Source: an uncultured Candidatus Saccharibacteria bacterium
Lineage (GTDB): Bacteria; Patescibacteriota; Doudnabacteria; UBA920
NCBI GenBank assembly: GCA_964512925.1
Contig: CAZEKH010000001.1
Span: forward strand, 39,445 to 103,444
Length of the DNA stretch: 64,000 bases
Reading direction: 5' to 3'
The translations under genes and the position numbers were made by a program. Under the pieces are notes generated by a model. The model was not told the origin of the DNA. It worked only from the letters and a program-made list of their open reading frames with translations, and did not search any database. Positions 8,063-9,544 of this stretch are shown here, in pieces; position 1 is the stretch's first letter; the number at the start of each line of letters is the position of its first letter.

Positions 8063-9544
8063 TTATTGGTACTGGTCTCCCCAATCATTTTGAAACACCA
8101 CAACATCGCCAGGTTTTAAGATATCTTTTAAAGCTGAATGTGCTTCCGGGGCAGAGTTAAAATAAATGATCTGATTTTCTGATTTACTGATTTTCTGATT
8201 TACTGATTGCATCCCTTCCTCAACCCAAGGCGTTACGCTGTTCTTTATTAAGATAACCAAATCCGCAACATTAGCCAGCTGCCTGCCGATTTCCAAGTGG
8301 ACAGATTTTGAAACAGAACCCATTTCCACGAGCCCCGGCGTGATATATACTTTTCTCTTGCTGGTGAAACGGGATAAAAGTTTTATAGCCTCTTTTACAC
8401 CTTCGGGATTACCGTTATACGCGTCATCTATTATAAGAAGGTCGCCCGAAGACTTAATAGGCTGAAGCCTGTGAGAAACCGGCTTTACTGTTTCAAGCCC
8501 GGTTTTTATTTGTTCTGTTGTAAGTCCCAAAGCTAATGATACCTGAATAGCGCAATCCGCGATTCCCAAACCATACTCCCCCAGAAGTCCAAAATGAAAC
8601 CTCCCCACAGTTTCATTTGTTAAATCCCAACAAAGATCTTCAGCATTAAATGTTTTTTGCTTAATGCCTGATACTTCATACTGACTTATTTGTTGTCCTG
8701 GCAAAACAAATTTTGAAAAATTCTTTTCTATATTTTCATCATCACGATTTAGCAGCACCAATGCTTCAGGCTTAGAATTTTGTGCAACCTCAAAAATTGT
8801 TTCTGTTATTTTGTCCAAACTTCCCATTCTTTCCAAATGCGATTCGTTGATGCCCGTTACAACAGCGATATCCGGCTGAGAAATTTTACAAATTTCTTTT
8901 ACATCGCCTTTGTAATGTTCGCCCATTTCAATTATTAAAATTTGGTCTTGCCCTGTACCCGAGGCGTTAGCTGAGTGGTTCAGGGTTTCATCTGAAACTT
9001 CATTTAAAATAAACCTTGCAATCCCAACCGGCGTGTTTACACTCTCCGGCGCGCTGAGCACTGAGTACTTTGTACTGAGCACTGTCTTTAAAACTTCTTT
9101 CATTGTGGTCTTGCCATAACTGCCGGCGATCCCGATTATCTTAATTGAAGATTGAAGATTGAAGATTGAAGATTTGGCTCTGGAAACAATTATTTGTTTC
9201 AGTACAAAATCTAGTGGCCAAAGAAGAATTGAGACGAAAGTATAAAGTATAAAGTATAAAGTATAAAGCAAAATACAAAAACCCAAGCTTAATACTAAAT
9301 ACTTAATACTTAATACTGAAAACCCTTGCGATAAAACAGAAAATAATAAAATGGTTAGTAAAATATGAAGAGCCAAAGCGCCTAAAAAAAACACGCGGGC
9401 TTTCATAGTCCAAACCAAATCTTTCCTTTGCTCGGGCTTTGGAAACAGTCCTTTGCTTAACAGCAATTTAAAATACCGCCCAAGCTCATAGTTCTCGAGC
9501 TGCAGTAAATAAAGTTGATATTTTGGAATTTTTAAAAAATTCAT
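8063..9544 (-). CDS. murF: UDP-N-acetylmuramoyl-tripeptide--D-alanyl-D-alanine ligase, atypical N-terminus
   Basis: P-loop IAGSYGKTT, DDAYNGNPEGVKEAI C-terminal domain motif. The first ~135 aa are a hydrophobic low-complexity segment encoded by heptamer tandem repeats rather than the canonical MurF N-domain. Confidence 0.85.
   Translation of the reverse strand: MNFLKIPKYQLYLLQLENYELGRYFKLLLSKGLFPKPEQRKDLVWTMKARVFFLGALALHILLTILLFSVLSQGFSVLSIKYLVLSLGFCILLYTLYFILYTFVSILLWPLDFVLKQIIVSRAKSSIFNLQSSIKIIGIAGSYGKTTMKEVLKTVLSTKYSVLSAPESVNTPVGIARFILNEVSDETLNHSANASGTGQDQILIIEMGEHYKGDVKEICKISQPDIAVVTGINESHLERMGSLDKITETIFEVAQNSKPEALVLLNRDDENIEKNFSKFVLPGQQISQYEVSGIKQKTFNAEDLCWDLTNETVGRFHFGLLGEYGLGIADCAIQVSLALGLTTEQIKTGLETVKPVSHRLQPIKSSGDLLIIDDAYNGNPEGVKEAIKLLSRFTSKRKVYITPGLVEMGSVSKSVHLEIGRQLANVADLVILIKNSVTPWVEEGMQSVNQKISKSENQIIYFNSAPEAHSALKDILKPGDVVVFQNDWGDQYQ
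8161..8200. repeat. Period-8 tandem repeat (CTGATTTT/CTGATTTA x5) inside the murF 3' region
   Basis: Encodes SVNQKISKSENQ in MurF. Confidence 0.6.
9145..9317. repeat. Cluster of heptamer tandem repeats (GAAGATT x4, GTATAAA x4, ACTTAAT x3) forming the murF 5' coding region
   Basis: 9145-9175, 9240-9268 and 9290-9317. The same GTATAAAG / CTTAATAC motifs recur in intergenic DNA at 24230-24290 and 46001-46036. Confidence 0.6.

Follow-up and report, generated by a model that had tools for sequence, protein, structure and literature searches.

A predicted membrane module in place of the first MurF domain in Patescibacteria, and in-frame heptanucleotide arrays in a Doudnabacteria-like murF gene

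Introduction

What is a MurF ligase that begins with a hydrophobic stretch, part of it written in tandem heptanucleotides, instead of its substrate-binding domain? The question is raised by a murF-type gene at positions 8063-9544 (minus strand) of a 64,000-nucleotide stretch of DNA, here called the window, taken from an uncultured bacterium of the Doudnabacteria, Patescibacteriota (assembly GCA_964512925.1, contig CAZEKH010000001.1, positions 39,445 to 103,444). In textbook MurF, a soluble N-terminal domain binds the uridine diphosphate (UDP) part of the substrate. A model that saw only the letters of the window (the sequence-only reading) had proposed that this domain is missing, that an extension of about 135 residues encoded by heptamer repeats stands in its stead, and that intergenic repeat DNA had been recruited to make it.

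We arrive at another order of events. Judging from sequence and structure comparisons, the product of this open reading frame (ORF) is probably the organism's D-Ala-D-Ala-adding enzyme, MurF, in a form proper to Patescibacteria, and the heptamer arrays would be a separate, later layer. The architecture and conservation of this MurF variant are solid, and its function is assigned by homology and gene linkage.

Results

A MurF-type ligase without the UDP-binding domain

The gene encodes 493 residues: an N-terminal membrane domain, then the central and C-terminal domains of Mur ligases. It starts with ATG, just downstream of a Shine-Dalgarno sequence, AAGGAGG. Pfam recognises Mur_ligase_M (PF08245) at residues 139-324 (E = 1e-19) and Mur_ligase_C (PF02875) at residues 358-484 (E = 8e-14), and finds nothing before residue 139. 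The P-loop, GIAGSYGKTT (9104-9133, minus strand), placed by Pfam and by alignment, is of the GxxGKT type (GSYGKTT).

Among NCBIfam models, the best is TIGR01143 (murF; E = 4e-59, 200.6 bits), against at most 69 bits for the single-enzyme families of MurC, MurD and MurE. Positions 71-403 of this model align to residues 131-484 and its positions 1-70 are left unmatched. In a sequence search of PDB, the seven top matches are all MurF (E = 2e-30 to 2e-17), the remaining matches listed being two pseudomurein-ligase chains (6e-8); the solved MurF chains align from residue ~105-136 of the query onwards, that is, from their own residue 69-104. We built an AlphaFold2 (AF2) model on 28 homologues (mean pLDDT 87, pTM 0.82). 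With it as the query, Foldseek ranked first the MurF of Thermotoga, Acinetobacter, Pseudomonas and E. coli, with 3zl8 as the best match (E = 4e-23). By family models, PDB sequences and fold alike, the protein is nearer to MurF than to MurC, MurD, MurE, MurT, Mpl, FolC or cyanophycin synthetase.

It thus resembles canonical MurF (PDB 3zl8, 1gg4, 4cvm) in its ATP-binding domain with the P-loop, its C-terminal domain with a DDxYNxNP motif and its gene linkage to ddl and alr, and MurF chains are what it matches best in sequence and fold. It differs at its beginning, where the soluble domain 1 of ~80-100 residues is replaced by two cytosolic and two membrane helices that have no relative in Pfam or PDB. 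The domain model of MurF domain 1, PF01225, finds no match, and the AF2 N-terminus is all-helical, with two membrane helices. Residues 1 to ~135 bear no resemblance to the MurF N-domain; searched on their own against PDB, these 135 residues gave no match (best E 0.12), and likewise none in Pfam. Pfam, TIGR01143 and the PDB alignments therefore agree with the sequence-only reading that the canonical N-domain is absent.

The start of the protein is well constrained. In-frame ATG, GTG or TTG codons occur at positions 1, 27, 43, 47, 51, 57, 87 and 92, the last being a TTG, and then only at ATG148, beyond the P-loop. That no start lies between the repeats and the P-loop, as first claimed from the letters, holds in this codon scan.

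A conserved cell-wall neighbourhood

The genes around murF all lie on the minus strand: alr, for alanine racemase (6795-7952), directly downstream; ddl, for D-Ala-D-Ala ligase (5575-6765), the conserved partner of murF; and, as the conserved upstream neighbour, an alpha/beta-hydrolase gene (Abhydrolase_6, 9995-10795), which contains a (GAATTTT)x3.7 array at 10081-10106. From contigs representing one genome per species we obtained 203 loci with a murF relative and kept 80 for locus analysis. The lineages named among these 80 are Doudna-, Buchanan-, Jackson-, Magasanik-, Falkow-, Roizman-, Gottesman- and Berkelbacteria, CPR2, Paceibacterota and Microgenomates. By tblastn, 75 of the 80 loci have ddl beside murF and 74 have the hydrolase gene there, the exceptions being mostly loci that end near murF. 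The conserved order is hydrolase, murF, sometimes alr, then ddl.

Genes for a class A penicillin-binding protein and a MurA-like enzyme are also present in the window, which indicates that the organism makes peptidoglycan. The conservation of the N-terminal module, described below, and the linkage of hydrolase, murF, alr where present, and ddl together support a genuine D-Ala-D-Ala-adding enzyme.

The N-terminal membrane module

Hydropathy outlines two hydrophobic segments in the N-terminal region, at residues ~50-72 and ~83-109. The AF2 model has helices at residues 3-16, 21-31, 47-71 (of membrane length), 80-95 and 97-133, the last two only one residue apart, followed by the first strand of the ligase fold.

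From these data and the alignment, the module can be read from its N-terminus on, all features lying on the minus strand. It begins with the conserved motif KYQLYLLQLENYELGRYFKLL (residues 8-32, 9449-9523), predicted to be cytosolic, free of arrays and delimited by invariant columns and by two predicted AF2 helices. The conserved basic motif RKxLVWTxKA (residues 40-49, 9398-9427) stands just before the putative transmembrane helix 1 (TM1; residues ~50-72, 9329-9397). A short loop leads to the putative transmembrane helix 2 (TM2; residues ~83-109, 9218-9298), which is encoded in part by an (AAAGTAT) array. At the predicted cytosolic end of TM2 comes a conserved WPxDxxxK motif (9194-9220), with P110, D112 and K116 invariant. 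The linker helix (9140-9193; part of AF2 helix 97-133) then connects TM2 to the first strand of the ATP-binding domain and is encoded in part by an (ATTGAAG) array.

Lysines and arginines number 10 before TM1, one in the loop and four after TM2. By the positive-inside rule, this distribution would place both ends of the hairpin in the cytoplasm (N-in, C-in), which fits an ATP-dependent enzyme. The two-helix hairpin is thus predicted to anchor MurF in the membrane, as the sequence-only reading had foreseen.

Conservation across Patescibacteria

Is this module a peculiarity of one genome? A protein search with the murF product returned more than 1500 homologues. In none of the 120 best does Pfam see a domain other than M and C, and 113 align with the query over at least 98% of its length, so with its N-terminus too; their source names are Doudnabacteria or Patescibacteria MurF. 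In the alignment of 28 sequences, Y9, L11, Y12, L13, Q15, E17, Y19, E20, R23, L27, R40, K41, L43, W45 and K48 are invariant before TM1, and P110, D112, K116 and A123 after TM2. When the N-terminal 133 residues were searched against 1.8 billion cluster representatives, 89 proteins were found, and the match always fell at their N-terminus. About two thirds of these proteins are at least 389 residues long; the others are short and probably truncated entries.

Across the 80 loci, the strict pattern (Y/F)(Q/H)L(Y/L)LLQLE(N/E)Y(E/D) matches 40, and 30 more show, by eye, variants of the N-terminal, basic and P-x-D motifs. The module is therefore readable in 70 loci and present in every one of them; the other 10 are truncated, masked or without the P-loop pattern used. 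A normal MurF N-domain at this position was not seen among the relatives, whose alignment shows the membrane module instead.

In distant relatives (outside the Doudnabacteria-like clade, below ~50% identity), TM2 and the linker are encoded by non-repetitive DNA. An invariant module across lineages, together with array-free DNA in the distant ones, argues that the extension was not created by repeat DNA, contrary to what the sequence-only reading had suggested. The N-terminal membrane domain is, by these comparisons, old, shared by many candidate phyla of Patescibacteria and not built by repeats. They support a replacement of the first MurF domain by the membrane module in an ancestor of much of the Patescibacteria radiation.

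Heptamer arrays in the window

The repeats themselves are real. Tandem Repeats Finder calls three arrays upstream of the P-loop, whose units are the GAAGATT, GTATAAA and ACTTAAT noted before. The first, (ATTGAAG)x4.4 (9144-9174, 100% matches), encodes residues 124-134, KSSIFNLQSSI. The second, (AAAGTAT)x4.6 (9237-9268, 100% matches), encodes residues 93-103, LYTLYFILYTF, inside TM2. The third, (CTTAATA)x4.3 (9288-9317, 91% matches), encodes residues 76-86, SVLSIKYLVLS, and has one unit altered where a perfect unit would yield a stop codon. Together the arrays make up 93 of the 405 nucleotides that encode the extension (23%), and none overlaps an invariant column: the extension contains heptamer repeats, but it is not, as had been said, encoded by them as a whole.

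Among perfect arrays of at least three copies and periods 5-16, the window has period 7 only, with three arrays where Markov shuffles predict 0.0; tolerating one mismatch raises the number of period-7 arrays to five, again against 0.0. The excess of lag-7 autocorrelation is 0.123 for nucleotides 1-420 of murF, 0.048 for the rest of the gene and -0.015 to 0.022 in 21 other genes of the window.

Two further repeats lie in the catalytic part of murF. A degenerate period-7 stretch (CTGAGCA, 75%; 9054-9084) runs over the conserved VLSxKYxVLS segment after the P-loop, and a period-8/16 array of CTGATTTN (8170-8208) encodes SVNQKISKSENQ in a C-terminal loop, where relatives have other arrays or GC-rich palindrome inserts. 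Arrays of the CTGATTTN motif occur in three neighbouring genes, ddl (6202-6240), murF and the hydrolase gene (10628-10658); they yield the peptide SVNQ.IS in all three, lengthened to SVNQ.ISKS in ddl and murF.

Outside genes, degenerate arrays were found at 24226-24286 (AGTATTT/GTATAAA, then CTTAATA, in inverted arrangement) and at 46008-46042 (CATAATA/CTTAATT). The sharing of heptamer motifs with intergenic spacers, part of the original claim, thus stands for two of the three units: degenerate GTATAAA and ACTTAAT units are present at 24234-24289 and 46014-46027 (the window has 10 and 11 matches, where ~1.2-1.3 would be expected), whereas GAAGATT is absent from these two spacers. A heptamer array of CTTACTA units was also seen at 13260-13284, where a Wzy_C (O-antigen ligase-like) gene encodes a membrane segment; units of this family also encode the TM2 of three relatives' murF (L006, L009, L011).

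A long imperfect hairpin spans 9228-9325 (minus strand), with a predicted RNA fold of -27.2 kcal/mol (z -7.3; none of 200 shuffles as stable). It arises from the loop array and the TM2 array, each nearly an inverted copy of the other (AGTATTA and CTTTATA on the coding strand), an arrangement that recurs, weakly (z -1.4), in the spacer at 24226-24290. As a conserved RNA element it is not established, since z reaches -2.6 or lower in just 8 of the 36 relatives folded and the L009 units are not complementary.

Another kind of intergenic-type DNA does enter the protein. GC-rich palindromes occupy intergenic gaps of the window at 7955-8000, 9555-9600 and 9960-10005, and in the murF loops of relatives GC-rich palindrome inserts translate to SPQPSPARGEGG, SAKGGSASGG or VIARSEATKQS...LAMT (P0004, P0075, P0021, L002, L006, L019, L024). 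Some relatives have such inserts at the very loop where the window's murF carries a 13-residue insertion unique to this genome, LNHSANASGTGQD (8945-8983, minus strand), which the alignment and the AF2 model show as a low-confidence surface loop. Intergenic-type repeats may therefore lodge within murF, as had been proposed, but they are not the origin of its extension.

Six permissive sites in one clade

We extracted the murF genes of 37 relatives, aligned the 36 intact ones by codon and marked near-perfect period-7 stretches. Such arrays make up 2.07% of murF nucleotides and 0.30% of the flanks. They fall at six sites, given here in query residues: 75-83 (TM1-TM2 loop), 92-105 (TM2), 124-135 (linker), 154-163, 287-299 (mid loop) and 447-459 (C-terminal loop). 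The mid-loop site holds an array in up to 16 of 37 aligned sequences, the window's own murF counted.

The units differ between genomes at a given site. In the linker they are AATCTTC (window), AAATCAA (L005), ATCAAGG (L016) and AAATCTN (L006, L011, L019); in TM2, CTTTATA (window, L002, L004, L008), TTACTGC (L009) and ACTACTT (L006, L011, L012). The mid loop has AAATTTC in nine genomes and AAATCCG, AGTTCAA, CAAATAT, AAAGTAT or AAATCAA in others, and the C-terminal loop has ACTACCC, ACTACCA, AAAGATT or GGAAGCC, in addition to the period-8 motif of the window. At the linker and the mid loop, protein length is equal between genomes with an array and their close array-free relatives. Together with the non-repetitive DNA of distant relatives, this equality indicates that arrays overwrite existing sequence and do not add to it.

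Perfect arrays of at least three copies in the 80 loci number 24 at period 7, against 0-1 for each of the periods 5, 6 and 8-16. The 32 closest loci (260 kb) contain all 24, and the 48 distant loci (384 kb) are free of them. With 18% of the sequence, murF has 19 of the arrays (binomial p = 1e-10); four of the five others fall in the adjacent hydrolase gene (p = 7e-4). Shared ancestry inflates these counts, which are not independent: counted by site and unit, murF has ~12 distinct combinations, the hydrolase gene three and the remaining sequence one. The arrays occur in the Doudnabacteria-like clade only, where they recur at permissive sites of murF, and the hydrolase-murF heptamer hotspot is real. 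The hydrolase gene, immediately 5' of murF in nearly every locus examined, is the only other flanking gene with heptamer arrays.

Two candidate regularities were dropped. Length differences in the TM1-TM2 region are 6, 9, 12 and 33 nucleotides, not multiples of 21, and so give no in-frame steps of three units (seven residues). The fit of AAATTTC to an X XXY YYZ slippery frameshift site we take for a coincidence, since most other units do not fit.

No frame variants at the arrays in the assemblies compared

Gain or loss of a repeat unit had been suggested to toggle the frame of murF. The frame is nonetheless intact in 36 of the 37 relatives, a comparison of consensus assemblies, which would hide minority OFF variants. 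The sole broken gene, in L066, is not an array variant: its frameshift lies at an A-run after the P-loop, apparently in a long-read assembly.

Within clusters of 90% identity we found no unit-number variants. What changes there are whole blocks of ~20-35 residues, replaced at the hot spots: in the mid loop between P0209 and P0212, and in the C-terminal loop between P0010 and P0232. Otherwise near-identical proteins thus read, for example, QISNFKFQ or KVSSIMYKV, which suggests recombination between diverged alleles. A search of metagenome contigs with the exact flanks of the 9144-9174 array, for strain variants in repeat number, gave no matches. Phase variation of murF is unsupported by these data.

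Heptamer arrays beyond murF

An exact search of metagenome contigs for (AAATTTC)x4 returned at least 120 contigs (L081-L200), with a G+C content of 28-66%; none of the arrays among the matches listed is in a murF-like gene. Among these, copy numbers fall off roughly geometrically, with 96 arrays of four units, 20 of five, three of six and one of seven. In 68 of the 120 contigs listed, a frame without stops for at least 600 nucleotides runs through the array. Pfam confirmed the host gene for four ORFs: an NAD-dependent DNA ligase (LigA), a leucyl-tRNA synthetase (LeuRS), a class 3 fructose bisphosphatase and an adenylation-reductase enzyme resembling nonribosomal peptide synthetases. The same contigs, among the matches listed, contain 48 other perfect heptamer arrays, compared with 1-5 for each of the periods 5, 6, 8 and 9. 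In-frame arrays in metagenomic genes point to a widespread tendency to short arrays that is specific to heptamers.

Within the matches listed, in-frame (AAATTTC) arrays always read FKFQISN. Differing arrays stand back to back in L101, L122, L127, L133 and L137.

Other features of the window

Between the hydrolase gene and murF lies a DUF559 gene (Vsr-like endonuclease fold; 9611-9958), with the GC-rich palindromes of 9555-9600 and 9960-10005 on either side. None of the 80 related loci has it, a distribution that suggests a small selfish insertion. For the same reason, we rejected this nuclease gene as the local cause of the array hotspot.

A perfect 20-nucleotide inverted repeat with a 1-nucleotide spacer (10833-10873) is found just 5' of the hydrolase start and could be an operator or terminator heading the hydrolase-murF-alr-ddl cluster. 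A promoter and terminator scan of 5400-11000 gave site counts no higher than, or below, those of shuffles. Further away, a gene of the MurA/EPSP-synthase family (16241-17755) has an N-terminal HTH_3 DNA-binding domain, an unusual fusion. The genes dnaA, dnaN and a recF-like gene (SMC_N domain) stand together at 54058-58103, with several short tandem repeats just 5' of dnaA (54058-54554), and probably mark the region of the replication origin.

Discussion

A proposed membrane-tethered MurF

We propose that a module of ~130 residues, in which two short helices on the cytosolic side and a basic motif precede a two-helix hairpin and a long helix leads on into the ATP-binding domain, takes the place of domain 1. 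With both ends of the hairpin in the cytoplasm, the catalytic domains would be held at the inner face of the membrane, beside the membrane steps of wall synthesis. This tethering role and the topology we infer; the architecture, the conservation and the gene neighbourhood are observed.

In the Doudnabacteria-like clade, in-frame 7-nucleotide arrays of ~4-5 copies would then have replaced sequence at the six permissive murF sites, including the TM1-TM2 loop, TM2 and the linker, and in the hydrolase gene. The three frames of a heptamer amount to a seven-residue peptide, so T-rich units may give acceptable membrane-helix or loop sequence. Each genome seems to have homogenised its own unit at each site, with a protein length that does not move in steps of seven residues. 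Homogenised units at constant length suggest an ongoing turnover, by slipped strands or of a conversion type, filtered for frame by selection.

Several points weigh against this account. The score of 200.6 bits is below the curated cut-off of TIGR01143 (288.6), and the protein lacks the domain for the UDP moiety; its substrate could therefore be a different one. Relatives were compared at their murF loci, and a second, canonical murF may be encoded elsewhere in their genomes. The membrane topology is drawn from hydropathy and the AF2 model. As for the arrays, slippage by a single unit would break the frame of a probably essential gene, and homogenisation at constant length is mechanistically awkward; a general mutational process, for its part, leaves the enrichment in murF and the hydrolase gene unexplained.

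Alternative explanations

Could the long ORF be accidental, with the protein starting downstream or the repeat counts mis-assembled? Repeats are classic sites of assembly and gene-calling errors, but we find this scarcely credible: codon 92 is followed by no in-frame start until codon 148, a Shine-Dalgarno sequence precedes the first ATG, the full-length ORF is kept in dozens of independent assemblies, and the arrays, at 30-39 nucleotides, are shorter than sequencing reads. The recruitment of intergenic heptamer DNA to build a new hydrophobic N-terminus, with the anchor as a recent by-product, would explain why three arrays sit in the extension, two of them encoding hydrophobic peptide, why degenerate copies of two units recur in two spacers and why the 5' region of murF has the strongest period-7 signal of the window. 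We nevertheless judge it very improbable, because the extension has invariant residues across many Patescibacteria lineages, array-free relatives have the same two helices, the arrays touch none of its conserved motifs in the 23% that they cover, and arrays are also found in the catalytic domains and in the neighbouring gene.

The two other explanations concern function. If the arrays were contingency loci, one 7-nucleotide unit gained or lost would switch murF, and the hydrolase gene, off or on and make wall synthesis phase-variable. The unit length is indeed not divisible by three, the arrays stay perfect at fixed sites although the genes have fallen to ~50% identity, they cluster strongly in two cell-wall-associated genes that lie side by side, and neuO of E. 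coli K1 offers a precedent of a coding heptanucleotide repeat that switches a gene (PMC13001214). Yet neuO has 3-53 copies and is out of frame in 65.6% of genomes (PMC13001214), unlike murF, whose arrays are short (4.3-4.6 units), whose frame is kept everywhere but at one A-run, whose protein is equally long with or without an array at a site, whose 90% clusters lack unit-number variants, and whose product is normally essential; a contingency role is quite unlikely. Finally, the enzyme might be an unconventional MurF that ligates D-Ala-D-Ala or another substrate onto a lipid-linked or membrane-bound precursor, as MurT does on lipid II. The loss of domain 1 and a score below the curated MurF cut-off would agree with this, as would the clustering of charged and aromatic residues (E17, E20, R23, R40, K41, W45, K48, D112, K116) at the cytosolic face of the membrane. 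Such chemistry is unlikely all the same, given that the closest relatives by sequence and fold are all MurF, that the tight ddl/alr linkage fits ordinary MurF chemistry and that tethering alone accounts for a membrane anchor. We therefore retain, as the most probable explanation, a membrane-tethered D-Ala-D-Ala-adding MurF, overwritten in part by later arrays.

Comparison with known systems

Mur-fold ligases without a UDP-binding domain that work at the membrane are known: MurT, a subunit of the lipid II isoglutaminyl synthase, has no domain 1 and acts on lipid II, and PgsB/CapB, the poly-gamma-glutamate synthetase, has in PgsB an N-terminal membrane anchor. The murF product resembles them in lacking domain 1 and in its predicted membrane anchor. 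Its sequence similarity to them is weak: it obtains 22.7-25.3 bits with the MurT models, whose cut-offs are 800, and PgsB is absent from its NCBIfam matches. Beyond the fold it is not akin to either. No GatD or PgsC/A partners were seen, the murF neighbours being D-alanine enzymes.

Heptanucleotide arrays of heterocystous cyanobacteria, the nearest parallel known to us for the heptamer-specific tendency, are called STRR, for short tandemly repeated repetitive sequences. The tendency to 7-nucleotide tandem arrays with many different units per genome is common to both cases; the arrays described here are in Patescibacteria (Doudnabacteria-like), mostly within genes, in frame and in one operon. 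STRR arrays have been used for the fingerprinting of cyanobacteria (PMC5088731). With neuO the likeness lies in tandem 7-nucleotide units within a coding region, three units encoding seven residues; there it is one long 5' array, here several short arrays per gene, with no unit-number variants in the genomes compared and every murF gene in frame save one, whose break lies outside the arrays. Rickettsia palindromic elements are in-frame repeat insertions in permissive loops, and the GC-rich palindrome inserts in the murF of relatives show a like tolerance of intergenic-type repeat DNA in protein loops. The heptamer arrays, in contrast, bring no net length change where they stand in for non-repetitive sequence and have no common sequence, and so are not copies of one mobile element.

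A literature search for a membrane-anchored MurF, or for heptamer repeats, in Patescibacteria found nothing relevant, and in the library searched no paper deals with the MurF of these bacteria; this MurF variant is apparently undescribed.

Implications

Textbooks describe MurF, a drug target, as soluble, and a version with a membrane hairpin and no UDP-binding domain is apparently standard in a very large group of ultra-small bacteria. Two questions follow: by what means such an enzyme recognises its substrate, and whether the membrane is a place where precursor synthesis is channelled. A bolder proposal, which we regard as doubtful, is that the MurF step has moved to the membrane across Patescibacteria and that the two-helix module, with its ring of invariant charged and aromatic residues, replaces the UDP-binding domain so as to recognise a membrane partner (a lipid-linked muropeptide acceptor, or MraY in a direct hand-over). 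A heptamer-specific repeat-writing process, spread widely among bacteria, may also be focused on this operon.

As to the arrays, 7-nucleotide tandem repeats can apparently be written over segments of an essential protein, a membrane helix among them, and leave it intact. Should MurF indeed recognise a membrane partner, peptidoglycan precursor synthesis in Patescibacteria would not divide, as it does in textbooks, into cytoplasmic stages and membrane stages.

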